From Lingula anatina (taxonomy: Eukaryota; Animalia; Brachiopoda), in assembly GCA_051362555.1 (NCBI GenBank), contig CM120641.1, forward strand, positions 46,382,401 to 46,446,400: DNA of 64,000 nt, read 5' to 3'. The position numbers and the translations under genes are program-made. This document shows positions 2,751 to 37,000 of this stretch, in pieces. How positions within the stretch are numbered: the stretch's first letter is position 1; each line of letters begins with the position of its first letter. The notes under the pieces are model-generated. The model saw only the letters and a program-made list of their open reading frames with translations. It did no database searches and had not been told where the DNA came from.

Positions 2751-4996
2751 CTTTAATTCTTCTTCTTCTAGTATTTTTAGAAGTTTTTCAGAAGTTTTTA
2801 CATAATAGAAGAGAAGAAATGTATAAAGAAATGAAATATTTTCTTTTCAGGCGGGTTAATCCCCAGTGTGCCACTGGCGGGGAACATTGTATTCAAAGAT
2901 GTCAGCTTTAATTACCCGACCAGAGAAGATGCTGTGATATTCTCTGGTCTTGACCTACAGATCCCAGCAGGGTCTGTTATGGCTGTGGTAGGGCCTAGTG
3001 GCTCTGGGAAATCCACTCTGGCTGGACTGTTCCTCAGGCTTTATGATCCACAGAAAGGTGAGAGATTTTTAATGATCAAATGTAATGAATTTGTTGTTTC
3101 ACAGATTAATTATGTGGTATTGCTTTAGAATAGTGGTCATTTTTGGTGAAAGCCCAAATTTTTTAACGAGATGAGAAGCACTTACTTTGGTTATCATTTT
3201 TGGTTTTGTACTCAAAATATTTGCCAGGGGAACATAAGTTCTTATGTTCAATAGGGAACTGACCATGAACATAATGAAAATGCCATCTTACTCATAATGT
3301 TGTAAATTTTGAAATTTGAAGAAGAGGTTTGTATATTATAGATGTAAAATGTATATGTTATTATTATTTTATTAATTTGATTTTACAATTAATCTTATGT
3401 TATTTATATGATATATGTATATTACCCCTCATGTATTCAGGTAGTATCACCCTGGATGGTACTGATACCACACAGCTAGACCCAGAGTGGTTGAGACACC
3501 AGACAGGCACTGTCAGCCAGGAACCCATTCTGTTCTCCTCCACAGTGAGGGAAAATATAGCGTACGGCGCCGTGGACCCAGAATCTGTCACAATGGATGA
3601 CGTGATTGCTGCAGCAAAGAAAGCAAATGCACATTATTTTATCCAGGGCTTCCCTCAGGGGTACGAGACTGTGGTTGGGGAGAGGGGGCTGATGTTGTCA
3701 GGTAAAGAATGGTATTGTCAGATAATTAGATTCTGTACTTGAAATTGTCACAACTTAAAAGTTGATAAAAATTTAAAAGGTCAATTTGCGTACAATTTTT
3801 GTACCATAATGGCTTCTTGCTGACGATGGTTATAAGAGGGAGCAAAGAGGCAGGAAGCTTGTAATTCACCCCTCATCCTTATTTTATTAATGATACCCTG
3901 GTTATAGTAGTTATGTTGTAAAAAAACGAGGTGAAAAATTGTAACAGAAAATATGTCAGTTGAAAAGCAATGTGACAATTGATTGAATTTAACTTTTTAC
4001 TTCCAAGGGTTAAGTAGAAGTAGTAGTTATATTAAAATCAAATTGAAATGGTAACAGAAGACGGTTTGTACAAATACAACATAAAAGCTTTTTTTTACCT
4101 ATTCTACAGGTGGGCAGAGACAGAGAGTAGCCATTGCAAGAGCTATACTAAAGGTAGTGTGAATGCCATCAAGATTAAAGTTCATACTTTGAATAGGAGC
4201 TTGTCACATCATTTCTGTAGCACTAACTATTTTAAAGCAATTAGAGGAATGCTCTTATAGCAGCAGTTGTGAAATTGTTTTAGATTCTTTATAAAAATAC
4301 CAGTCTGAGATTATAGGTGGAAAATCACTTCTATAATATGTAAATAGTAAATGACTGTTATTTATTGCAGAATCCTAAAATATTACTGCTGGACGAAGCC
4401 ACAAGGTAGAGCTGTTTCTTTATTTTTCACATTAAAATTGTTTTTAATGTATTGTTCCTGTTTATGCATAGTTCTTGGTGTGGTAAATTCTCATATTTAA
4501 ACTGGTTCTTTAGTACTTCCTGTGATAATATGATGTAATGCACAAATCTTTTTTCATTTTGATTAAAAAAAAAAAAACAATTTCATTCAAGAATGCAAAA
4601 ATTGCTTCATAATACAAATTGTCAATTTAGCATTGCCTTATCTTTCGAAGTTTTATTTAGGAAACATTTTTGTCCAATTGTAGTTCTCCCATTCTGCACA
4701 CTTAAGTGTATGTAAGTCTCTACTATTTTCACAATTTTTTTCTCAGTGCTTTGGATGCTGAGAGTGAACACTTGGTTCAGGATGCACTTGAGAAGCTGAT
4801 GGTAGGACGTACTGTGATCACCATAGCCCACCGCCTGTCTACCATTAAGAATGCAGACAAGATAGCGGTGCTGGACGGAGGGAAAGTTGTAGAACTTGGT
4901 TCATACTCTGAGCTCACTCAGTTATCTAATGGAGTGTTCAGGAAGCTGGTGGAAAGACAGGCCATTGTGATTGATGATGAGGGTCTACAAAGCTGA
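299..4996 (+). CDS. ABCB10: Mitochondrial ABC half-transporter ABCB10-like, 3' part (5' exons lie before the window)
   Basis: Ten GT-AG exons join in frame: 299-501, 924-1058, 1343-1489, 1966-2101, 2452-2547, 2851-3057, 3441-3701, 4110-4153, 4371-4405, 4747-4996. TM domain ([23 protein letters not shown]), Walker [11 protein letters not shown]-loop VSQEP, signature LSGGQRQR, Walker [14 protein letters not shown]-loop IAHR. AATAAA at 5425-5430. Confidence 0.9.
2628..2746. repeat. Poly-C/poly-A run followed by a (TA)n microsatellite
   Basis: C run 2628-2641, A run 2642-2669, (TA)n 2701-2746, inside an ABCB10 intron. Confidence 0.9.
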
Positions 4997-7087: not shown

Positions 7088-9185
7088 CTACTCCTGGACA
7101 CAGTCTAAATACCAAGGCAATTTCAACACACAGTGTCCCACGCCAGTCATGCTCCTGGGCAGTGCCCCTAGTGTCTCCCACGTCCCCATGGTCAGATCAT
7201 ACTTGGAAACCATTTTCTGTCCAGTTTTAGTCTGTACATTATACCCTCCTAGGACAAATATGGAGTTTTGGAACACCACACAGCTGGCCTCTTTGTGTGA
7301 GATAGACATTGGGGCGATCACTGTCCACTGATCAGTGTCAGGGTCATAACACTCAGACTGCATCACAGGCTGTGCTTGCTGGTTGGCGTTAAGGTTGCAC
7401 CCTCCAAAGACAAATAAACGATCACGAGCTATGCACATGACGTGCCACGCACGCGGGGAGAGCATCGATGTCATGTCCTCCCACTGGTTCAAGGTTGGAT
7501 CGTAACGCTGCATGTCTGGTGTAAAATGGTTACTGCTGTAGCCGCCACTTACAAATATATGGTTTCCGTAAACTGCCCCAGCGTGAGCATGGTACGATGT
7601 GGGCATAGCAGAGATTGGGGTCCAGGAGTTATCAGCAGGGTCATACATCTCTCCTGAGGCCAGGCTGCCTTCCTTGTACTTCCCACCTATTGCAAACAGT
7701 TTATTGTTCAAGGCTCCAGAATAGAAATATGCCCGTTTGTTGATCATGGGAGCCACCTGAAACCAGGCATCAAACCTGGGGTCGTACCTCATGACAGAGT
7801 TTGTCGCAGACTCCCCATGCGCACACTGCGTAGTGCACCCTCCCATGACGTAGAGAAAATTGTTCATCACGACCACTTGCATGTGACTGAGAGCATGTGG
7901 TAAGCTCGCCATATGACGTCTATTCATCAAGCTACTGGCAGACATCTTGGCGTCGTAGACTAAAATTTCGTCATGCAGACCAGGAAAAGGGTGAATCTCA
8001 CGACCACCTACGCTAATAAGTCTTTCTTCAAATGACCTCACGTGAGTGTTACTGGAATGATGCAGAGGCTGAGAGTGAGGGACGACGTGATAATTTAAAG
8101 CCTCCAACACCATCTCTCTCAGTTCCTTGATGTTCATCATGACATCTATGCTCTGCACCTTCTGAACTAAATCAGCAGGACTGATCAAGGGAAACCTGAT
8201 GTTGGTCATCAGAGCTACAATACACCTCTCCCTGTTCTGATCCATCCTAATCCACTCCCACGCCACCTGAAACAAATCTATCTCCTTCAATTTTAGAGTA
8301 TCACAGCTTAGACAGCTCAAGATTTGGTCATAAGTGAGAAGGTGAAGGGTCCCCTCTAAAGCAATCTGCATCAAGTTCTGGGAGATAAAACTGTCAATCT
8401 GTTTCAGAGCATTATTCATGTTGTATAATTTAGCAGTGGTTATAAAATCGTAAAAATTCCCAGTGGTCATGCCACTTAGGAAGTTCTTTTCGCAAAACTC
8501 AATCACTGGTGTGACTTGTAAATGCGTGGCAGCTGCCGTGACGTCAAATATGTCATCTCCGTCTAAAGTGGTACTTGATGTATAGACTATCTCCAGCACT
8601 TTATCCAAGCCCCTGGCGGTCACCCCTTTCAACTCGATCTCCCGCTGAGTGCTCTCCTTCATCCCACTCGTGAACATGGAACGGAAGTAATCTGAACATG
8701 ATACCAGAATCACTTTGTGGACATCAAAGCGTTGAGCTGCAAAATAATCGTGTTTGGTTTTAGATATTACTGGATCATTTATACAATGGAACATAATAAG
8801 GCAATATAAATGATTATAATATAAATAATATAAATCTACAGGATACAATTAAGGTTAAACATGCCTTTGCATAAAAAATTGTAACATTAAGTGGAATGAT
8901 ATTATGTCAACTTTATGCAATGTGTCAACAAATACATGTTAATGATGGACTATCATTTTATTTATACTTCTAAAAAAGAAAATTTTCTTTGAACAAAATA
9001 TAATAGTCACCTTCAGCAATTAATGTCACATCACACAGTACTTTGTCTCTTTTGAGGTGGTTCAAGCCCTGCAGGATTTTGACACCATGTTCAGGGCGTA
9101 TAGTGGGTTCAGCAACATCTTCAATCAAACCATCCTCGTAGCAGTCATTCATGATGCAGCGTCTTTTGGGGTCGGGACCACTCAT
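7088..9185 (-). CDS. Kelch-like protein (BTB-BACK-Kelch repeats), KLHL9/13/26/36-like CUL3 adaptor, about 607 aa
   Basis: Coding exon 9185-9011 (MSGPDPKRRC...LCDVTLIAE, phase-1 GT donor) joins exon 8736-7088 (acceptor TTTTGCAG; AQRFDVHKVILVSCSDYFRSMFTSGMKES). BACK domain (IRFPLISP) and kelch repeats with GG..YDP..W motifs. Candidate minus-strand polyA signal at 5626-5631. Exact orthology not resolvable by eye. Confidence 0.9.
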
Positions 9186-10299: not shown

Positions 10300-11025
10300 T
10301 GGCAGCCTGAGGTTATCTACCTCTGGTATACGATATGGTCATTACGTGACTCGTTACATATACTCAACATGTACTGTTCCTCTTGGCGATGAAACAGTGA
10401 ACACAGACAAGAACGTGACAAAACATTTGGTTGCTGCTTCTGATACAACATACGTTTTAATACTATCAGTTTTACAATTAACAAGTGTAAATGCCACAAT
10501 CGGAATAGATTACTTTAATGTACGTATTCTAGGTTACTTATATTATTGCTTACCGGTCTCTTGCACGGTCATGTTATTGCACATAAACACAAAACCATCA
10601 AATCGTCATCAACTTGTCTTAGCTAATGACATCATTTAGAAGGTAGTATATTACACTCCGTAAAGTTGAAGAAAATTCTATGTTAAAATGTCTTCTTGAA
10701 TGCAACTTTTTTGAGTAAATTGAATACTCTAACATGTGTAAATTATCAAACCTAGTAAATGTGAAGATTTTGTTTTAATATATTTGACATAATGCTGATA
10801 TCATAATTTTTTTTTATAAATTTCATATCCCAAATTTACACGTGAAATATGTCTCCGGGACATTTCCGCCACCTATCGGAAGAGTCTGAAGTTGCTCACA
10901 GTTGCTCACATATTGCAACATGAAGCTGTTAGAGATGGAATCACCGTGCATGTCTTCCACGTGAGATGCCATTGCCTGCCCACTGTAGCAATTTCTCCCT
11001 TGTGTCTTAGAGGATTAATGAGAAG
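10300..11025. promoter_or_regulatory. Putative bidirectional promoter region between the head-to-head KLHL-like gene and BRF1
   Basis: Divergent gene orientation and locally retained CpGs. CGCCACCTATCGGAAG at 10867-10882 (CTCF-like plus ETS-like). Candidate BRF1 5'UTR exon donor AAG|GTAAAT at 11025. Confidence 0.4.
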
Positions 11026-11771
11026 GTAAATTTTGTACGTGATGAAGGAAACTGCAGAAGCAGTTCACTGTACAGTTTAATGGAGAGCGAAATATTTTTT
11101 GTATTTATAATTCCACGTATTTGTCCATCAATTATCCTCTTTTTATTTTTACAACGAAATAGAATCGTGTAAAACAAGTAACACAAACTATTTAAGATAG
11201 AAAAATGTTGTTATAAAAGAGCTTTAATTAAAATATCTCAACTGGCAAGTTCATATAAGCACAAAGATTGAAAGAACAGATGGTATCTCAATTAAATCTA
11301 GGTTAGTATGTAAAATTATAGATACTGTAATAATGTAGGGTCTGAGGACAGAGAAGGGACTAAGTGCTTGGTTTGGGACAGTTGTATTTTACCTCAACCC
11401 TTATACCAGCAATATAAACAGGATCAGGTGGAGAGCATTGTAAGACGGGAACAACTCTATGGGGAATGTTACATAATTGATTGAGAATGTGAGATACCAT
11501 TAAAAGTGGAGACCAGTAATGTAAAATCTATTCAAGAATAAGTAAGTGCTAACAACACTTCAGTGCCTTTTGGGTCAGTGAACCAGATATGAACCCCCAG
11601 CTGCATAATGGTTTCCCTTATCACTCTCTTTTTATCAGTGCATAATATTGCAGTCAACACCTTATCGTAATAATCTTAATTATAATTATGATTAATTCAT
11701 TAATGTATGTTATTGTTATATGGTATTTTATAAGTAAAATACAATGCATGTCCTGTCATTAGTTGCAGACA

Positions 11772-14700
11772 ATGTCTAGTCGGGTGTGCCAGCACTGCGG
11801 TTGCAGTGAGATCGACACGGATGCTGCCCGCGGTGACGCCGTGTGCACCAGCTGTGGGTCTGTACTGGAGGACCAGATCATCGTCTCGGAGGTCCAGTTC
11901 CAGGAAAACTCAATAGGTGGCACCTCTGTCATTGGGCAGTATGTGTCTGCGGAAGGTGAGGTGATGTTTATGGTCGTTCACTTCCAAGAAATATCAAACC
12001 CTTGCGAAACCAGTTTCATCAGTGAATGAGTTTCCCCAACTCTAACCAGTAATGTTATTGTCATTATGCACTATTTGGAGTTGGTTCCTTGCATTTTAAG
12101 GTGCTATTGTTAATTATATGTTTAATGATAAATTTATGCATTTTTTTGCACTGTTATGTTGTAATGGAGAATAATAAAACTAGTAGGATGAAAGCTACTT
12201 ATACCTGAATAAGTTAGAGTGACTGAACCAAGCAATTGTTATAAGAATAAAGGTTTTAACATTTCAATATGATTATTATTACTGTTATTATTATTTAGGG
12301 AACAAGTCTCACAGCATGGGCAGTGGTTTCCATCATGGTTTTGGAAAGGAATCCCGGGCTGTCACTTTGCAAAATGGTGAGGTTTAAATACTTGGAAAGC
12401 ATGCATAAGTTCATATATATATAAGGTGGTCTTTGTGTCAAGTGTAGAAGAGATAAGATGTTCAATAGACCATTTCAAAGTGTCTTCCAAATGGTTTTAT
12501 ATATGTATTTGTTTGTTTGTTTGTTTTTTTATTGTCTGTTTATTGGTCCCCATCTAAAGACATGACGCATTACACACAGACATGTTTAGATATTTATTCA
12601 TTCTATGTCATATTGATGATAACCCTTTTTTTCCACAGGAAAAAGAAATATCCAACAGCTGGCCTCACAGTTGAAGCTGAATCAACATTGTATAGAAATA
12701 GGTTACAACTTCTTCAAAATGGCTGTTAGTAAGCGCCTGACAAGGGGAAGAAAAACCAAACACGTGATAGCAGCCTGTTTATATTTAGTTTGCAGAACAG
12801 AAGGCACACCACGTATCCTTTTTTTCTGTGAATTTGATAATCATGTTCAGCTGGCTTGGTTCAGCTCTGTAACTCTAATCAAGGTGGTACCTGAAATCCC
12901 AAGGGAGGTAAGAGTGAGGATTTAACAGATCAATAAGTTCCAAGCCCAGCTGTGAACTCTGTGATCCTGTTAATTAGGCTACCTGGCTGTAATACAGTAC
13001 TTTATCCTCCAATTCTTCAATGTGTATGGTGAAATCCTTACTAGTATGCATATCAACCGTATTATCATGTCAAACCACAGATCTTGCAAATCAATAGTCA
13101 AAATGACATCCATCGAGTGCATTTTATTTACCGGACGATTTGGATAAAAATTCCTTAACTTGCATTAGATATGCTGTTGGATTTTAGTGATATACTCCAA
13201 GTCAATGTGTACACACTGGGAAAGACGTACCTCCACTTGTCCAGAGAACTGTGTATAAATGCACCAGCTATTGGTGAGTAAACATTTGTTTATATAGGCA
13301 ACTGGGGAAATATAATTTATTATTTATTTATTTATTTATTTTTCTCAAAACTTAGCAAGTTTTAATATTTATCACTGGGATAAAATTTATCTTGGTCTAA
13401 TACCAAAATTTATTTAGTCAGGTTTATGTTTTGAAATAAATCAATGATAGATATGCTGAAAAAAATTTTCTCCTTTTCTCTGTATCCAATTTATAATTTA
13501 CAAATTTTCTAAAATTTACTGTGCTTTAGTGGGCATTACCACATTTCTAGTATATAAGAATAATATGCTATGTTTAGAACTTAAAAATTTCCAAATCTGA
13601 TATACAAGTAGGCATGTAATGATGAGATTTTAGAATTTCTTATGAGGTAAATAGAATTCAATAGACAATTTTGTGTTGTTGAGTGCTTTAAGTGGAGTTG
13701 ATATTGGGCAAGACAAGAAAGTGATTGAAATAACTTTAGAAACATTACGTGCATTACATTTCACCAAAATTTGCCCCGTGCTGAAAATATTGACGCCCGT
13801 GAAGTTGAGTAGATAAATTACTGGAAAAGCTGTAATTATTCTAGTTATTTCTGAATAATTCATTTGATATATATAATTTATCTGGAGTCCACCTTTTTAA
13901 AAGTGTGATATAATTTCATTTGAAACAAAACTGCCAAAGTCAACATTCACTGTATTTATTTGACTTTCAATGAATTAAATATACAGATATTGTCAGATCA
14001 TTAGAAAAGTAAAGCCCAACTTTGAAAGTAATTGACAGTATCACATGATCCACATATTTTGCCCACTTGCACCATCTTGGCTTCTACATGAAGAATAAAA
14101 GTCCTAACGAAACCACCTGTGCATAGGACCTTGCTAATAAGAACTATCAATTCATTGTAATCAAGATAACAATTAAAATAAACTGGTGAAGATTTGAAAA
14201 GATTCCATGTGTGTCTATGTAGAATGGTACTATTTTATGCAATTTAAGAATACTAGAGATATTTCCTTCAGTAATACTAGCTGTATAATAAATACATTGA
14301 TAACATATTTACTAGTTAACAATTATTTACTTCTAATTTATTAATTGTAAATATCTATTTGAAAAGGAATTATATTGAACATACAAAATGTATATCACAA
14401 TATGTATATAAATATTACCACCTATATACAAGAAAGCTCCTCATATTCTACATGCCTCAACCTTTGCCACTACTCCTTACGTCAAGCAGTTACAGCTCTA
14501 AATTTAATAGCTGTTGAAGAAATAAACAGAAGAAAATTATAAATAAATATCATGCATCCTGCATGCAAGTGTACAAAAAAAGATGAGGTAACCAGTCTAT
14601 TGACAACCCTTGATATGTGCCCATTTTAAGTACAATTTCACTGTTATAACCACGCCTATGTAGGAGGGACAAGATACTATACATGCTTAAAAATGAAATT

Positions 14701-17700
14701 CAAGTTGGAATGAAGCTGTGCTGGGTATGTTCAAAACAATCGTACGTTTACTACATTTTACTACATTATGCAACATTTGTACAGTTTGACGACATTTGCA
14801 TTGTGTACACGTGTGAGAACTGCTATCCAAGGTCTACCCATAGAAAACTTCTACCCGTAGAAAATTATCTCAGGAATTTGTCCCCCCTGAACCCCTGTTC
14901 CATTTGTGCTGTCAGAGGAGCACTGGTACTGAAAAGTCACCTTTCCCACCTGCACCTCCGCCATTCCCTCCTGTCCAAAATACGACAGTTCCGCCCCGTC
15001 CAGGATTGCACTGGCAGTGTAGAAAGCATCAGGCTCCACCTGGATGGGATTCTCAAACATCACGGGAAATGTATTACTGGAGCCATCTGAGAAGAACTTG
15101 GTGGTCTTTTCTCCCAGAATTATCCCGTTTTTCTTGAGCTCAATTTTAACCCTGTACTCAGCAGATCCATTGCTAGAACCGTATAAGCCAAACCCTGCGA
15201 CAAAGATTCTCTTGTCTATAGAAAATTGTATGCTATCACAACGCCCTCTATATCTCCACTGGTTACTGCGATAAGCAGATGACTGAAAACGATGGCATCT
15301 GAAGGGTCTTAGTCCAACACGCGACTTAACAGGAAAAGGAAGCTGAGGTTTGTGTGTTGCTGTATACCACAGAAAAATATTATTAGTCTCTTTAAGAGTG
15401 AGTATCCCTGACTGAGCAGGGCCATTAGCGAAGTCTTCCAACTTCATGGATGGTATTCTTACCAAGTACAGAGCTGAGCCAAGGACTTTTCTCTTGTTTT
15501 GATTGGTCGGTTCCAAGTCTCTCCTAACGCACTCAGCCTCAGCCCATCTGCATGTTGCCTCAAAGATGGATGTCTCCTGTGAATGTAAGGTCTCCCTCAA
15601 GAGGACAGTTTTCAGAGTTTCATGGTCGATCTCAGCGAAACTTTCAGCTTTCAGAGCCTCTTCAGCCTGTGCATCAATCACCTCCCAGCATCTCAGCATC
15701 AGCTCGTGTTCCTCAAACAGCCGACTCTGGCTCAACAGGACACAGGCGTTCTTGGCGTTAAGGCTGGTCTCTAGGAACTGGACACAAGCCTTGGCGAGAT
15801 AGGGTACTATGTACTTCTTGGCCACATACAGGGTGGCTAACACTGTGTCTGGTTCCAAGTCTATGGCGTCATAGTATAGGTACCTGAAATAATACACGAA
15901 GTTTTGTTTTGAAGACACATTTAGAAAAATGCCTTACTTTAAAACCAATTATATACTTTTCTTTCATTACTGTTAATTGATTTATTTGAAAGTTGTTTTA
16001 ATTAAATGAATTTTGTTGCATTCTTAAATTACTTTTAAAGAAATGAGTTTTTCAGTGAGTAGCAACATCATGATAAAATTTTTTTTCAATGTCCAAAAAC
16101 TCCAGTTCAAACAGTAAGCACAAAGTAGTATATCTATAAATTGTGAAAATAGCCAGTATAAGTGCATACATGCCATGATCAGGCATTACTGAACTAGGTC
16201 TTCAGTATAAGACCCTGTTCATTTAGATGATTCTAACCAAAATGAAGACAATTGAAACAATAGCCCAACTTACTTGAGTAAATTGAGAAATGCAGCAGGC
16301 TCCACATCAGGTATTGCTATCTCTGTCTTCCCATCAGCCAGTCCACCATAGAACATAGCAAAGAATACAGAGCTCCCTGTAGCCAGGTTATATTTATGAG
16401 CAGGTATTCGTTGTACACCACCAGTCGACTTCTGTCCCACAATGAACACTACGTCTGCCATGAGGTCATTATTACACATGGCGGCATTGCGTTCCTTAAC
16501 ACTGGTGTAGTTGGACTGCCAGTTGAGTTCATTTGTACTGTGCATGGATTTGGGTCTGGGAGCCGGAAGACAAGGTCTGGGCTGGCGGCTGATGCCCATG
16601 GTCTGACTCACTCCTGCCTTGTTTTCAGGGACCTCTTGGTTGACCTCATCATCATCAATATACTGCATCCTATCAGATATAACAAATATGTCTGGATTAC
16701 TCTTAGACATCTTTCTATTGGACATCAGAGTGAGAAATTTTGATACTAGGTGTGAGAAAATATAGACTAGCTCTCACAGTTCAGAATCATATGACTGGAT
16801 TTATTTATAACATTTATCTCCCTCACCCTGTCATGGTTTTGGACATTGATAAACAGCCTGGAGGTTTCTGCCTGCTATCCCAGATCATAGTTTGTTTGAT
16901 TACGAAGATTATCATAAATTCCTCAATATTATGTCGACTGATATGTTATTCTCATACTTCTCCATACACTTGATAGTTATATAGGGACTGAATTTTCATT
17001 CCATGCCCCATGTGCTAGTTGTAAATAAATCATCAATGATATGTTTCATATGTTACAACTTATCAGATAGTGTGTATAAATTAGTCCTTTGGGAGATGAA
17101 ATGTTATCAGACCAACCCTTCTGCATCACAAATTGCTACCTTGATTCCAGGTCAGCTTGATTAATAACACTAGCCCCTTTCTCTGTGCTTTTGTCATTGC
17201 TATGAAAAGTGTTTGTAACATTATAAGTTATGATACAAACCAGTGATGTACTTACTTGAGTTGTTTAAATCTACTTCTGATCATTTTAGAATTAAACCTT
17301 GTTCTCTTCACACAGTAATTACAACCACACATCATTGTTTGTCATAGAGCAACACTTACAGCTTTAATCAAGTCCAATTCCAACTAGCTACAGGTAATCA
17401 GATACTTAGATTTTCCAAATTTAGACATACCCTTCTGGGGCACTCACCTCTAGAAAATGTATCAAATTGTAACTTAATTAGGTCAACTTTATAACATGGA
17501 TCTTACCTGCTTTAGATCATTTGTTTGGGTATAGAAGGGGGCAGGTGAATGAATTTAAATTCATAGAATATAAATTACCTGGTATGGGAGGCATGCATTG
17601 ACTCGTCAGTATACATAATTGGTTTTTTTTAAGACTTCTGTTCAGTGTTCAGTTGACAGCCATCTTCTTTCATCCATGTAGTATCCCACAATGCACTATT

Positions 17701-20700
17701 TCCAATTAGCATAATGTGAGATTGATGGCGCCATCTATCAGGCTAGAGCAAAACTAATCAATGCCTGTTTTGCTTGTGTTTATAAATTTTCTTATTTGAC
17801 TTTATTGCTTAATATTTATCAAATACTTCTCTTAATTACATTTCTTCAATTAATTTTATGAAATAAAAAAGTGGAGGAAAAACAGGAGTGAATGTGTGTA
17901 TAAACTGAATAAATAACTTAAATTTTTACAATCAATTTTTAAAATCTTTTTCCCTTTATGGTCTAAGTTTCTATTTTATATTTTCCATTTTAAGTTTTAT
18001 ATAAATTTTATACAATATTGTCTTGTTTGTTTTGTAGATCCATGCCTACTCATTCAAAGATTCTCCCACAAGCTGGACTTTGAAGAGAAGACACATGATG
18101 TATCGATGACAGCACTGAGAATTGTACAGAGAATGAAAAGAGATTGGATGGCAACTGGCAGACGACCATCTGGACTGTGCGGGGCAGGTAGGAAGCATGA
18201 TAATATGATAAATGAAAATGATGAGAGTGAAATATGAATTATGAAAAACGAATTATGAATCAAAAACTTCTTTTCTTTTTCGGTATCTTGTTGATTTCAT
18301 AAGTCAAAAATAGATTACAGTGTATATGTTGGAAGTCAGACATGTTTTAAGAAGAGAATACTCTAAGTAACGTCAATCTCATAACTTATTATTATTTTTT
18401 TTTTTTTTGGATTTCAGCTCTGTTTGTTGCCTGCAGAATTCATGAATGTTACCGCACAATGAAGGAGATAATCAAAGTAGTCAAAGTTTGTGAAGCTACG
18501 TTAAGGAAGAGGTGAGGCTAGTTCAAATTTCAGAATGATGCTTGGGCAAAACTTGGCTGCTGAACTAGTCAGAGATGAAAAAATAGTGTTGTTCTACTAA
18601 TTTGAATGTATTTGTTGCTTTTTTATGCATATTGCTTCTTCTGCTTTGTTTTATTCTTTTTTGCCAGTTAACAGAGTTTTTTAAAGTGTCCTCTTTGATA
18701 ATCATGAATTATCCTTATTATTTTGTATCAAAAACAGTATCACAAAATTAATAAATGTCCAAGGTGTGAGAAGTCAGATTGTCTTTGACAAACAATGTAC
18801 ACTGATTGCACAATGCAGATGATATCATTATACTGTGTTCTTTCCCACATTCCAGATTAACAGAGTTTGAAGACACACCCACTAGTCAACTGACCATAGA
18901 TGAATTCCAGAGGATAGACCTGGAGGAGGAGCAGGACCCACCTTCTTTTAAGAAAAGTCGCAGAAAGGCCAAGGAGCAAGCATCAGTAAGTACCTAGCTA
19001 GGGTTTCAAAGAGCACGGTTAGTTTTCTTCAGCTTCTTTATTTTTATGGTGTCCTTGGTGCCAAATTGTAATGTGCACAAGTGTGATTTGAAAGTGAAGA
19101 AATTGACGTGGATTAAGAAGGGAAATTACATGATGTTTTTGTCATTATCTTCAAAATATTTGCCAATATTGCATCAGAAGGTATTTGTAATGCCTTTATT
19201 GTACACATAAAAAAACTATATAAGTATTGTTAAATTAATGACATTTTTGCCTTCAGCTGGAGGAAAGTGGCAAGTTGTCAGAGGTTGTCAGTGAAGTGAG
19301 CAGCATTCAGAAAGAAATAGAACAAGCACTGGAAGCTAGAATGAAGAAAAGATGGGGAAAAGAGATGGGTAAGATACCATTATCATTCTTATGAGAAATG
19401 ATAGTTTAAAAAGCATTCCTTTACTCCTACAATAGTTTTTACTAACTAAATTCACGGAGAACTTCTTATCCTGGGTTAATGGTCAAGAATTTCATTTAAA
19501 ACTTAAAAAACCATTTTAGCTCATTTTTCAAAATGTAGGAATGTGGTTATCACTTAGATATTTATGCATTTTGGAGCATTTACTCAAAGGATATTACCTT
19601 GTTTACCACTTTTTGAACCTGGAGATCAAGCTTCCAAAAAGAAATTATCTTTTTTTAATGAAATTTTTTGTTTTAGCCAAAGCAGAAGCAATGCAGAATT
19701 CGCTTGTAGAATCATCAAAGGACCAAGATTGCTTAGCAGAAGACGAGGATCTCATTCCATGTGGTTCAATAATCAATGACGAAACAATTGAAGCTGTACT
19801 CAACGACCCCACAATTACCTCAGATAATGGAATCTCAGAACTGGAGGGCGTCACGTCCTCAGAACCTCTTACAGATTTAAGTGAGGACACAACAGACAGC
19901 ACTGATACTGATGTACATAATTTAGAAAAACAGGAAATGGATAGCTTATTGATGCCACCGCCCACGTATTTGACGCCCGGACAGAAACTGGCCTCTTTAC
20001 GACCCACCGCAGCTAGTTTAGGTTTGATGGAAAGTGTTCAGGAGTGTTTGAAGGAGGAGGATTCTGTGGAGAAAGAAGAAGAAGAGGGTAAGTTGCACTT
20101 GGAGCCAATATTCAGTTTCATGAAAGAATTTCATACAGAGAATTTGTCCTCATTTTTCAAACAATATTTGGTCTACTTCAGTTCAAGATAAAGATAAATT
20201 CAAAGTAGCCTGTGTAAATAAATTTTACAGTATTAGTCTGAAACATCAGCCTTTTATTCAATTGGACTATTGTTGATTATCTAAGGTAAAATTTTAAAAG
20301 TTCAGACCAATCTTGGTAGAAAGGACCCTGTTCTCGTCACACTGTGAGAATATGCCATGCTCTTCATCATCATCATTACAAACATCTAAGTGATTGGCCA
20401 GAGAATATAGAATTAAACTTCCATTGTTCTCATGACACTTTTTAATTGTAGCACTGTCAGTTATGTCACGATCAAGTAAATCACTGGTTTACAAAGGAGT
20501 GCATTCCAGCTTACCTGTTAAGTAGCCAGAAGTGTGATTATTTCAATGTTAGCTGTGAAATTATGATTCTGCAGCTTTGTTTTGGCATATTAAGATCCTG
20601 TTTATATCTTGTTATGATAATAATAATCATTACTTTATTTTTGTTCTTCAGTAGAAGGAGAACAAGAAGATGGTGAGTTGGACCTCGAAGGCATAGATGA

Positions 20701-21704
20701 TGACGAATTGGAAAAGGTATGTTTCGGTTACTGTTTTGATAAAGTTGAATTTATTGTGCTCAGTGAACAGAAATGTTCAAGAAAAAGAGAGCAAACTTAA
20801 AATCACTGTTATTTCTCTGTTTTATTGAATTTCTTTGTTTTTGTTATTTCAATATTTTTGAGTAACCCTCATAATCATTTTCCTTTCAGTTTATCCTTAA
20901 CGAGGAGGAAGTGAAAAGGAAGACTGAAATGTGGATAAAACTGAATGCAGTATATATACAGGAGCAAAAAGGTGAAATTTCTTTCACAATTTAGAAGAAT
21001 CCTTCTATAAGTACAGTGATTAAAGCAGACAGTAAGAATATAATTTTTTGGATCGATTTATTTAAGACCAAACCTTAGACAAATATTGGTAATTTTTATT
21101 TTTAAATTGTGTTGTTTTTTTGTTGTGTGTCCTGGTATGAAGAGTATATGCCATATCACCTCATAAAGTTACTAAAACTCTCTTTTCTCACATTCCTACA
21201 GAGAAAGAAGAAAAAGAAGCAAGAGAAAAAGAATTAGGAATAACAAAGCCTGAACCCAAAAAGGTAATCATTCTTTTTGAAGAAAAGTTTTCACTGAAGA
21301 AAATATCTTAAGTAAGATTATCATTATGATGTATGGCTCCTACATATAGATATGATTGTATGTTCTACTTTTCTACTATCTTGTTTAAGATTTTGTAATA
21401 CATAAATTATATAAAACTGTCATATTTTTATGATAGAAAAAACAACACAAGAAGAAGAAGCAACAATACCCAGCCAACAGTGCAGAGGAAGCTATACAGA
21501 AAATGCTTCATGAGAAGAAATTTTCAAACAAAATCAACTATGAAGTTCTCAAAGATCTGAACAGGGTGTCTGAAAGCAAGCAGGTTATAGTGGCGGAGCC
21601 CGTCCTTGGTGCCAGTACCCCAGTGAAGTCTGGGATAGGGACCCCAGATAGTAAAAGGTAGAAGTGGCTGGCTCCCTTTCTTCCTTCTTTTTATCAATTT
21701 TCCT

Positions 21705-21790
<86 letters not shown>

Positions 21791-22943
21791 AGGTGTTCTC
21801 TCCTCTTTTAGCACCTTCTATCTACTATGACTCTGGACTTAATCCTGTCCTTGTTTTTAGTATGTATTCTCTCCTATTATTAATTAAATTGAGTTGAAAC
21901 ATGATCTGAAGTCAGGGGCAAACTTGATCTGAAGTCAGGAGCTTGCACAGAACATGACTAATTACACAAATTATCAGTGATGAAATTGTGGTTTGTAACA
22001 ACAAATGACAAATGTTTTCCAGATTTAGAAGGACCAGTTTATCAATAGACTCCAACACAGCTGAACAATCCCGGAAAGTAAGTTTGTCAAATTTGAAAGA
22101 AAAGAAAAGCATAGCAGTCATTTGTTGTATTTTTTGTGTGGTAACTTTTTCATTTGAGTGACTTTTTAGGTTACATTTTAAAGCAGAGTATTTTGTTAAT
22201 CACATTTATATAATATGCTGCTATTTGATTGCTAGGAGCCACCCATTAAAAAGATAAAAGTTGAAGACAAAGTCACAGCTGCAGTCATTGTGGAAACTGG
22301 ACCTGTGGACTATGCCAAAGAAGAAGGCAAGTCTTGTTCCATATCCTCAAATTTTAACTCCATGGAGATAATTTTGTTAAATTGTTCCCAAAAGTGCGTA
22401 TGGTGACAAGTTAAATTGTGGTTAAACTTAGATTTGTACAAAGGGAAACATGTTCAGATGACAGAAACTTCACAATCACAAGCTTTGAATTGGACCTGAG
22501 TTATGAGTTTAACTTTTTCCTTATTAACAAGTAAACAGCTATATTATACTGTAAGTTAAATGGTCTTGGTTTGTTTTTTTTTAGAAGAAGCTGAGGAGGA
22601 GGAGGAGGAAGAGGAGGAGGAAGAGGAACACATCAGTGCAGCCACACTACTGGGACATGGGGCAGGTGAGGATCACTATGTTATTGTCTTTAAACATCTC
22701 TTCATACTAGGGTTACTTTATTCACTTTGGATTGAATTCAGATTTTGAGAACCATTATCGGTATTTTTCTCAAAGGAATACATAGCAGTCTGTGTGTGCT
22801 TTTAGTTAATTGGAATTTTATTCATTTAACCATGTCATTTGATGTATTTCAGATTATTTTATTATTGTATTTACATTATTATTGTTTTCAATGCAGAAAT
22901 GGAAGATTACCATGATGGTTATGATATGGATGATTTGGATTAA
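11772..22943 (+). CDS. BRF1: RNA polymerase III transcription factor IIIB 90 kDa subunit BRF1
   Basis: 17 exons join in frame: 11772-11955, 12299-12376, 12639-12812, 13169-13273, 18038-18187, 18418-18511, 18856-18985, 19257-19368, 19677-20087, 20652-20716, 20890-20971, 21202-21263, 21437-21657, 22023-22077, 22236-22326, 22585-22665, 22897-22943. Zn ribbon CQHC...CTSC, TFIIB cyclin repeats ([30 protein letters not shown]), BRF homology blocks ([15 protein letters not shown]; [10 protein letters not shown]), acidic tail. Confidence 0.96.
12813..13168 (+). other. U12-type (minor spliceosome) GT-AG intron in BRF1
   Basis: 5' splice site GTATCCTTTT at 12813, branch point TTCCTTAAC at 13151-13159, AG at 13167-13168 with no polypyrimidine tract. 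Splicing restores the conserved TPHMLLD sequence. Confidence 0.93.
14851..16725 (-). CDS. BTBD6: BTB-BACK-PHR protein BTBD3/BTBD6 ortholog (about 494 aa), nested antisense in a BRF1 intron
   Basis: Exon 16725-16274 (phase-2 donor GTAAG) plus exon 15883-14851. BTB ([15 protein letters not shown]...IPAHKY...PDVEPAAF), BACK and PHR domain ([23 protein letters not shown]...[18 protein letters not shown]) match the BTBD3/6 subfamily. Probably co-orthologous to both vertebrate genes. Confidence 0.93.
17659..17742 (-). promoter_or_regulatory. Putative intronic promoter of the nested BTBD3/6 gene
   Basis: Cluster of a YY1-like GCCATCTT (17659-17666), a ZNF143/Staf-like TCCCACAATGCAC (17684-17696) and the palindrome GATGGCGCCATC (17724-17735, YY1/CTCF-like). 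Minus-strand splice donors lie just downstream at about 17578 and 17506. Motif matches only. Confidence 0.45.
21705..21787. repeat. Compound (TC)n(AC)n microsatellite
   Basis: Directly visible in a BRF1 intron. Confidence 0.9.
22327..22584 (+). other. GC-AG intron in BRF1
   Basis: Donor AAG|GCAAGT at 22326/22327. This phase-1 junction joins YAKEE in frame to the EEAEEEE exon starting at 22585. Confidence 0.7.
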
Positions 22944-33948: not shown

Positions 33949-33964
33949 TGCCACCTAGCGGTCA
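33949..33964. promoter_or_regulatory. CTCF-like motif near the TRIM9/67 start codon
   Basis: TGCCACCTAGCGGTCA matches the CTCF core consensus, about 75 nt before the ATG at 34040. Confidence 0.45.
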
Positions 33965-34039
33965 CCGCGAGATTCAACAATCCAAACAAAAACGAGGCTG
34001 TTAATAGTGGAGCGTTCAGAGGGTGCTTGGGGAGCAAAG

Positions 34040-37000
34040 ATGGATGGGGAACTGAAGTGTTCTGTGTGCTGTCGTAACTTCACCAAGCCAGTCTTGCTTC
34101 CTTGCTCACATTCTCTTTGTTTAGGGTGTGCTCTGAGTATCCAAGCTCCAGTTCAGCAATTTGTCCCGGCGCCGGCCAGTTCCGAGGAGGGAGCGACAAC
34201 ATCAACGACGGTTGGATTACCTGAGTACGACTTCCCTGATATTGACAAAGTGTCGATACTCAGCGAAACGGACAGTGGAGTCGTGTGTAATAGCCGACCA
34301 AATAGTTATGTCGGAACCCCAAATGTCAGTAACATCATCACACAAGCAATACAGGGGAGTTCTATCGGTATCTGTTGTCCAGCGTGTAAAAAAACAGTTT
34401 ACTTGGATGAAAATGGTGCGAACAGTTTACCAAAAAACAAAGTTCTGGAGGTTATAGTTGAGAAATACACGAGCGGAAAAAGTATGGTGGTTCGATGTCA
34501 GTTGTGCGAAAAGGACCCCAAAGAGGCCTCGGTGATGTGCGAGCAGTGCGAGGTGTTTTACTGTGACAGTTGTCGCGAGCACTGTCACCCGGCTAGGGGT
34601 CCCCTGGCCAAACATAACCTGGTAGCCCCCAGTGCGGGCAAAGACACCATGAGGGCCAAAAATAAAAGCATAAGCATCAAAGACGTCAAATGTTCAGATC
34701 ACGGGGATGAGAATATTAGCATGTACTGTTTGATTTGTAAAGTTCCCCTGTGCTGTCTTTGTATGCAGGACGGCCAGCATGTCAACCACGATGTCCAAGC
34801 ACTAGGGGCTATATGTAAAGCTCAAAAGGTAAGTACATAGTTATAAATATATATATTCTCAATTCAAGTTATTACACAAGGCACTCGCTCACTTCTGGAA
34901 TACAGAACCTTTTGCTGCCTGCCCTGGAATTCCAGCAGTGAGAGCATTTATTTTATGTCACGGCTTGAAGTGTTAACCAGTGATTGGATTAGCCAGGAAA
35001 TGGCAGGTGAAATGAGTGGAGTGTGTATGGCTTGGTACAAGTTAGTCAGCTATTGCCTAGTTAGTCTGTCACTATCCCCAGCCCTCTGCCCCAAGTCAAG
35101 TCAACCTGGATGGGCTCCATTCATTTACGTACGTACGCTCCACCTGAGTACCCGACCCAGCAGGCGCCATACTGACGGACAACTTTTATGGCTTTTCCCA
35201 ATTCAAAGCGTAGTTTTATTATGCCCTGACTCATTCAAACTTCATACCTTTGTTGATCTTAACCAGTGATGCCATTGACCAGGCTGATGGCTATCACAGA
35301 GAAAACTGTGCACGGGTCCTAGAGAAATCCACCCTGCTGTGATATTATAATACTTTGTGTAATTATTTCACCTATGGATTTGTGAATGTTATTGTATTGT
35401 GTTGTACCCGTCCGCGGCAGATGTATTGATGAAGGGGGTCTTCTGTTTGTATGTGTATGAAACTGAGCATCTGGAGTGTTGAAAGTTATTCATAATTTTT
35501 CCGGCTCTGTGCTCCTTGTTGCTTTTGTCAACTATTGTCGAAGAAAATGTTTAAGCCTCTCCTTTATTTGTTCACTGATTGTAATGAACCTGGTGAATAA
35601 TAAGAGGTACATATTGGTATAAGTGAGTAACAGCAGAGAGCAGGATACTACCCCAGCCAGCAGTAAACCCCATATATTTCAAGTTGTCTTAAATTGAGTG
35701 TGAAAGGTCCTTCATAAATTCACAACATGTAGTCACTAAAATGTCTGGGCCCTGGAGAGATTTTTCCTAGCATTATCAATCACGTAAAGAACTTAAGACC
35801 AGTTCATTTGGTGATTTATAAAAGCAACTGATGACAGTGATTTAAGTATACATAGTTTTAAGAAGGATCAGGTTAATTAAAATTTTAAAACACCAGCTGC
35901 TGTTTTGCTCCAAAACCTTCTTAACAACACATGAAAGAACCTGTTAGTGATTCCCAAGAATATATTATTGGTCTAGCATAGCATGTTTAATAGTTCCTAT
36001 GGCTATTATTGATGTCCTGCTGCCGATAAAATGGCCATGAATATGTCAATAATATTCAAGATTATGGTAGATCTCAAGATTTATGACTGTATAGCCTGAG
36101 AACAAGTCAAGAGACATACACGGTTATATTTCATCTGTGTTTGAAAAGATTTATTAGAAAACCGTAACTTTTTTCTGCATAATACCCCTAATGACATAAG
36201 TGTACTTTGAAGATAGGTTGATATTCTGTTAATTGTCACATCTGATTAAAGGTTTAATATTTGTCTGATAGGGCTTCTGCAGTAATTTCCAGCCCTTTGT
36301 TTAAGATTTCTATTTTCTTTTGATTTAAAAGCTTATCGTATTCTGCATGAAATATGAATTAGTCATAATGGGTTTTTGGAGACATTAATGCCTGCGAGTG
36401 CCCTGGATCAGCGCCTTATAAATTAAGATGAATTAAGATTACAGGTGTGAATTGGGTTATCTCAGTGGCAAGTGTTGTGAGGTGTTTTAAGATGCAGATC
36501 GAATGATGATAATCAGATGTTACATTTTTATAGAAATTATTCAGCTCAAGACTCAAATCTTTGCTGTGTTTAAGAATTCAAAACTGTCTCCACTGTATTA
36601 TTACTTGGGTATGCAGTATATGTCCACAGGCATGGCTGTGAAAAGAACTATGGCTAATATGGGACACAGAGGAAATCTCCAAACAAATTACCAGAGAGTT
36701 ATCTCATTTGAACTATCTCATTTTGCCATATGCTGAATACAGCGACTGCGCTCTATGAATTTTTTGATCCCTTGTGAGCTTTGTCGCCTTGTGATTGACA
36801 CTTCATTATCCACTCGATCAAAGATGATCAAAGCCTTTGTCTTCTGTCCCCGCCGCCATTCACTCAGAAGATGAGATGTACACCGAGATAGCGCTGATGA
36901 AAGTCTTCGTGCTATATTCCCTCAGTCTCTGGAGACCTCACAATCACAACTGTTCAAATGAGGGAAACACAAATGACAATCAGACCTTCGCTCTCATATC

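Follow-up and report, generated by a model that had tools for sequence, protein, structure and literature searches.

A BTBD3/6 gene nested antisense in a BRF1 intron of the brachiopod Lingula anatina, and the probable retention of the pair since the protostome–deuterostome ancestor

A window of 64,000 nt of genomic DNA from Lingula anatina (assembly GCA_051362555.1, contig CM120641.1, positions 46,382,401–46,446,400 of the forward strand; coordinates below are those of the window) carries the gene for BRF1 (TFIIIB90), a factor of RNA polymerase III (Pol III), on the plus strand and, inside one of its introns, a complete BTBD3/6 gene on the minus strand. The spliced BRF1 frame is open in the window sequence. 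Coding exons 1–4 (11772–11955, 12299–12376, 12639–12812 and 13169–13273; RNA joints) cover the zinc ribbon region and the first TFIIB repeat and end with the residues NAPAI, while exon 5 begins at 18038 with D and opens the part of the gene that contains the second repeat and runs through the stop codon (18038–22943; frame, domains and RNA). The host intron between them (13274–18037, 4,764 nt, GT..AG) is in phase 1, after coding base 541 (NAPAI|D). A domain search matched the TFIIB repeat PF00382 to exons 3 and 5, so the host intron separates the two repeats, and exon 5 was 76–86% identical to its 120 best matches, the named ones being mostly BRF1; the host is a BRF1 gene with two TFIIB repeats of BRF1-type sequence. 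Among the first 12 coding introns the other 11 measure 173–564 nt; two further ones, taken from RNA joints, have 365 and 158 nt, and the final one has about 231 nt, in keeping with the initial annotation, made from the sequence alone, which had put all other BRF1 coding introns below 0.6 kb; an intron of 737 nt (11026–11762, first transcribed exon ending at 11025, RNA joint in 4/4 runs) belongs to the 5′ untranslated region (UTR).

The nested gene has three exons and encodes 488 aa in the domain order BTB (PF00651), BACK (PF07707) and PHR (PF08005). Exon 1 (17579–17670, 5′ end approximate, ATG at 17616) is connected to exon 2 across a 909-nt intron by the joint 16668–17578 (CT..AC on the plus strand), found in 8/8 RNA runs. 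Exon 2 (16274–16669; frame, domains and RNA) encodes the N-terminal region and most of BTB and, after a 390-nt phase-2 intron (LLK|Y), exon 3 (14851–15883; frame, domains and protein match) supplies the end of BTB, BACK, PHR and the stop codon, followed by a 3′ UTR at approximately 13892–14850. The initial annotation was thus correct in describing a complete antisense BTBD3/6 gene within the 4.76-kb phase-1 NAPAI|D intron, to which the upstream exon is now added. Two in-frame ATGs at 16725 and 16710 were rejected as starts, as they lie within the 909-nt intron and zero reads cover 16686–16766.

The long BTBD3/6 exon is 100% identical to a Lingula anatina BTBD6 record (P0001) and 72–78% identical to most other listed BTBD3/6/lute proteins; the 488-aa model differs from P0001 at one residue within the last 470. 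The PHR structure of BTBD2 (3no8) scored just 116 bits against the window gene. On these comparisons the gene appears closer to BTBD3/6 (lute) than to BTBD1/2, the BTBD tree having contained no BTBD1/2 outgroup, and judged by its sequence it is an unduplicated co-ortholog of BTBD3 and BTBD6. According to 10.1101/575910, vertebrate Btbd6 functions in neural development and binds both CUL3 and substrates such as PLZF; by orthology, the window protein would likewise be a CUL3 adaptor binding substrates such as PLZF. Two near-identical Lingula BTBD records (P0001 and P0351), on separate scaffolds of 33,878 and 1,145,227 nt, may be either haplotigs or a recent duplication.

Eight raw RNA runs labelled as the same species were used, in two sets of four, with X12–X17 stranded. 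The 4,764-nt joint between BRF1 exons 4 and 5 was present in 4/4 runs of the first set (54, 5, 5 and 9 reads); in the second set, reads past 18037 carried exon 4 in 3/4 runs, and X17 was almost without BRF1 reads. The BTBD3/6 reads of the stranded runs X12 and X15 fell on the strand opposite BRF1. The BTBD3/6 transcript extends over ~13.9–17.7 kb, wholly inside the host intron and clear of BRF1 exons: its reads stop in the bin 13892–14315 and the stranded runs have zero reads in 13468–13891, hence there is no overlap with BRF1 exon 4. This is an opposite-strand nested pair in which the entire nested transcript lies in one host intron between coding exons, and both genes are transcribed and spliced. 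Read ends at ~17670–17740 suggest a BTBD3/6 promoter within the ~370 nt preceding BRF1 exon 5 (17671–18037); a motif at 17683, occurring three times in 64 kb and resembling the Staf/ZNF143 consensus, is only a lead to a candidate promoter element.

In human, BTBD6 sits in the corresponding intron. A table of PMC12052365 gives the variant chr14:105249697 C>T both as BTBD6 c.642C>T and as the intron variant c.544+2810G>A of BRF1 (ENST00000547530.7). Base c.544 is the first of codon 182, and in pangolin BRF1, which stands in for human, residue 182 is the D following NAPAI; a chimpanzee BRF1 isoform joins QN|DPCL directly. The three-base offset between 541 and 544 lies in exon 2, which has 78 nt here and 81 nt as implied by c.544/c.463 in the same table. 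As c.544 falls at the D codon in the same phase, the host introns of window and human are homologous, and the suggestion of the initial annotation that human BTBD6 occupies this very intron proved right. Supplement rows of PMC11694760 enter BRF1/BTBD6 as host and nested gene in human and mouse, and Table S3 of PMC3933685 lists the pair as 'conserved' across vertebrates; vertebrate conservation is therefore already in print, in supplements. The human and mouse pair (14q32.33) is like that of the window in its genes, antisense orientation and intron by codon and phase, and differs in that the window gene appears unduplicated, that its host is the fourth coding intron and that no internal BRF1 start was seen in the window.

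Scanning metagenome contigs yielded 53 loci with a BTBD3/6 relative, of which 11 bear pieces of BRF1, every one antisense to BTBD; a scan of genome contigs returned 0/38 stretches. Nine of the 11 have a GT donor at the identical BRF1 codon and phase, 185–4,993 nt past the BTBD stop, and one, L017, holds donor and acceptor with a host intron of 3,502 nt. Quick trees (branch support from the Shimodaira–Hasegawa-like approximate likelihood ratio test, SH-aLRT, alone; near-duplicates and surplus references, 13 rows in all, and loci <250 aa excluded) and best hits placed these nine with bivalves (L001, and L024 by best hits), other spiralians (L009, L017), Daphnia (L003, L004), the cockroach Diploptera (L019, L032; termite-like) and vertebrate BTBD6 (L006; fish-like). 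Other spiralian-like loci carry an extra BRF1 intron (Q|V) just upstream of the host intron, which the window does not have. Look-ups of accessions gave adjacency, not nesting: consecutive numbers in the nemertean Lineus (XP_064621360 and 361–362) and in the amphioxus Branchiostoma floridae (XP_002604558 and 559, with a BRF1 model that breaks or starts just before DPCL), and in the abalones (Haliotis) equal-sized contigs for BRF1 and BTBD in 4/4 species with near accessions in 3/4. In the psyllid Diaphorina the two genes are on equal-sized contigs in 2/2 assemblies, yet have distant locus tags, which is not decisive; nor were the look-ups for bees and wasps, with no same-species pair found for bees. 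Literature searches for Drosophila lute and Brf returned no data on their loci.

The host intron is homologous in protostomes and deuterostomes. The idea that BTBD3/6 entered this BRF1 intron independently in different lineages can draw on nothing beyond the absences at some arthropod loci, whereas intron, phase and orientation are shared by brachiopod, bivalve-like, other spiralian-like, cladoceran-like, termite-like and fish-like DNA and by human, and the BTBD tree follows the animal tree; we regard such convergence as exceedingly improbable. A single ancestral insertion of BTBD3/6 into BRF1 before the protostome/deuterostome split is very likely, and the proposal that the nesting has been retained since the bilaterian ancestor gains from protostome and deuterostome DNA loci and neighbouring accessions alike.

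The nesting has nevertheless been undone in at least one lineage. At L038 (11371–14612) and L047 (11415–14893) BRF1 reads INIPAV-DPC, the host intron being precisely lost, and the whole BRF1 gene stands tail-to-tail with BTBD, at stop-to-stop distances of 250 and 524 nt. The BTBD of both loci groups with Orchesella cincta (support 100), and a BRF1 exon of L047 matches that of Orchesella dallaii at 96% identity over 85 aa; with both genes placed with Orchesella, we call the loci springtail-like. An ECT2-like RhoGEF gene lies upstream in both, which is consistent with one escape event. In their BRF1 the introns at P|H, GA|A and KR|L persist and the first two ancestral ones are likewise missing; it also has an intron at QLR|LNQ that is not in the window. 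Origin of this BRF1 as a retrocopy was rejected, introns being kept at ancestral positions. The tail-to-tail order is consistent with local duplication and reciprocal loss, of which it is one of two expected outcomes; a local relocation with subsequent loss of the intron is an alternative route.

The 42 loci without a BRF1 match are mostly short: 29 are cut or have <1 kb downstream, eight have 1–3.8 kb and five have 7.5–10 kb. The five long ones are L002 (bird BTBD3), L025 and L052 (crustacean-like clade), L029 (chelicerate-like) and L036 (bee clade). Nesting is not indispensable, because the springtail-like loci are un-nested and these five show no BRF1 within 7.5–10 kb. In the crustacean-like clade BTBD3/6 is head-to-head with the gene for the RNA polymerase I subunit RPA43 (by Pfam in L040, by eye in L025); the genes on that side lie at 3145–3573 and 1334–1762 in L040, with a methyltransferase beyond RPA43, and at 2340–3584 in L025.

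BTBD3/6 is an independent, expressed gene. The reading that we favour, and consider probable, is that the pair was inherited from the protostome–deuterostome ancestor and has been kept mainly by structural lock-in. The anatomy of the pair, the splicing of both genes and the shared intron position were observed directly. BRF1 is an essential TFIIIB subunit. A simple break beside BTBD would cut it, and if the host intron were lost precisely BTBD would go with it, so that parting would come only after duplication. Through duplication of the vertebrate genome BTBD3 would have come free while BTBD6 stayed nested; in the springtail-like lineage, local duplication and reciprocal loss would have produced a BRF1 without the intron and a BTBD tail-to-tail behind it, as in L038 and L047. 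Each gene would retain its own promoter and job, Pol III initiation for BRF1 and CUL3 substrate adaptation for BTBD3/6, and the weak expression links between them count for lock-in. The initial annotation had offered lock-in as one explanation: it fits the pattern, but not as an absolute constraint, given that the pair has parted in springtail-like and apparently in other arthropod loci.

Several points weigh against this reading. Lock-in itself, and its mechanism of retention, are what we infer, and lock-in predicts rare loss, yet the pair seems to have parted several times in arthropods: no BRF1 match was found in 8.8–10 kb downstream of BTBD in L025, L052, L029 (a long branch) and L036 (Apis clade, with a downstream flank of 9,997 nt, which a longer intron may exceed). 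BTBD has other genes as neighbours in L025 (downstream a bZIP gene; upstream, by eye and on comparison with L040, the RPA43 gene), L029 (a PHD gene upstream), L040 and L052; in L036 no such neighbour was seen. Only L017 and the window include the intron from both sides, the other eight loci having one side; L003 and L004 are intronless and may be merged transcript assemblies, and the nine loci amount to about six lineages. BRF1 and BTBD copies looked up in horseshoe crab and pipefish are on different contigs; both lineages have genome duplications. A positive published tissue correlation in mouse (rho 0.63) and the continued adjacency of the springtail genes after un-nesting also count here, since a shared regulatory tie would explain the latter too.

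Such a tie was the other suggestion of the initial annotation, as a coupling between a Pol III factor and a CUL3 adaptor. Ancestral nesting would then be kept by shared enhancers, or by a bidirectional BTBD promoter making a short BRF1 transcript from exon 5. Besides the mouse correlation and the springtail adjacency, several pieces of evidence point this way: several human BRF1 transcripts are annotated in the PMC12052365 table with starts downstream of the BTBD6 variant, inside the intron; hare and oyster BRF1 models have a different N-terminus joined at DPCL; a single SNP (single-nucleotide polymorphism) is an expression quantitative trait locus for both BRF1 and BTBD6 in pancreas (PMC8435735); and a short polq-1 transcript induced by ceh-10 offers a precedent (PMC12274878). 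In the bulk RNA of the window, however, an internal BRF1 start in the intron was not seen: loose ends at 18037 were exon 4 in 3/3 covering runs and 17739–17981 had no reads in 4/4 runs. Junction reads per 1,000 million letters ranged over 0–58 for BRF1 and 5–12 for BTBD (rho = −0.36, p = 0.39, n = 8), with BRF1 measured by joints in one run set and by loose ends in the other and with low counts from differing samples; the published tissue correlation in human is just 0.14. Comparison of the window intron with the 53 loci revealed no conserved noncoding block, its flanks giving by blastn only low-score matches of 19–44 nt in a set without a close relative, and several arthropod loci appear fully separated. 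Coupling is thus not supported by these expression data from bulk RNA, and we consider it unlikely. A sharper version holds that since early bilaterians a bidirectional BTBD3/6 promoter has driven a short BRF1 isoform from the NAPAI|D acceptor, without the zinc ribbon and first TFIIB repeat, tuning Pol III output in BTBD-expressing (neurogenic) cells, and that this tie rather than lock-in would hold the genes together, springtail adjacency included; we find it decidedly doubtful.

Mutual transcriptional interference, with BTBD on and BRF1 off, for instance to lower Pol III output in differentiating neurons, would agree with run X17, in which 13 reads span BTBD junctions and hardly any fall on BRF1 exon 5, and with the role of Btbd6 in neural development noted in 10.1101/575910. 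Against it, both genes were read together in 7/8 runs, the human and mouse correlations are positive, and the counts are low and from bulk samples; as a force keeping the pair it is very improbable.

The pair has a close counterpart in synapsin/TIMP, for which PMC2825198 describes an antisense protein-coding gene that occupies one constant intron position in protostomes and deuterostomes alike, was lost in some lineages and has copies freed by duplication, as for BRF1/BTBD. Synapsin/TIMP reaches Nematostella in that account; of the loci examined here none was assignable to a cnidarian. BRF1/BTBD further differs in having a housekeeping Pol III factor as host and in the visibility of an adjacent, intronless escape state. 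In C. elegans, ceh-10 is likewise nested in opposite orientation, a neuronal gene in the housekeeping host polq-1 (PMC12274878); that pair is nematode-only according to the same paper and its internal host transcript has been demonstrated, while none was seen in the bulk RNA of the window. The ancient microsyntenic pairs of Irimia 2012 (PMC3514665) are, like BRF1/BTBD, unrelated genes linked for >600 million years, but are mostly explained there by co-regulation or enhancers in bystander introns, unlike our reading of BRF1/BTBD; the latter pair is not in the main text, and the supplement may list it. No paper was found on the invertebrate depth of the BRF1/BTBD pair, in a search that left subscription papers outside; the springtail-like escape is what the present analysis adds.

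Nested pairs of bilaterian age test whether gene overlap persists by selection or by entrapment, and BRF1/BTBD offers natural controls in nested lineages, freed BTBD3, apparently separated arthropods and the springtail-like state. This last, in which the host intron has been removed exactly and BTBD sits just outside, would record how a nested gene escapes. The arrangement also supplies arthropod phylogeny with a rare genomic character and carries a practical warning: a variant or insertion within a BRF1 intron can affect BTBD6.

Elsewhere in BRF1, the P|H-codon intron (12813–13168, plus strand, spliced in RNA) has U12-type GT-AG signals, with donor GTATCCTTT and a branch-like TTCCTTAAC, classed by the U12 consensus. 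Its donor is U12-type (GTATCCTT or GTATCTTT) in the window and in 4/4 spiralian-like loci (L001, L009, L017 and L024), and an ordinary GTAAG in both springtail-like loci, where the intron has likely undergone U12-to-U2 conversion. A GC donor (GAAG|GCAAGT) apparently ends the BRF1 exon at 22326 (plus strand), RNA loose ends there carrying the next exon. At two junctions (20087–20657 and 22077–22239) the RNA acceptors are slightly shifted or the letters differ from the window, probably through allelic or NAGNAG variation.

Upstream of BRF1, the minus strand carries at 7088–8848 and 10554–~10610 a kelch-like gene with BTB, BACK and Kelch domains, predicted to encode another CUL3 adaptor; it starts head-to-head with BRF1, ~300 nt from the first transcribed BRF1 exon, and the two genes possibly share a bidirectional promoter. 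In L017 no kelch-like gene was noticed on that side of BRF1. An exon at 3320–3742 (plus strand) resembles, by eye, the nucleotide-binding region of an ABC transporter, and 33959–34840 (plus strand) holds a RING/B-box TRIM exon, presumably TRIM9/67-like.

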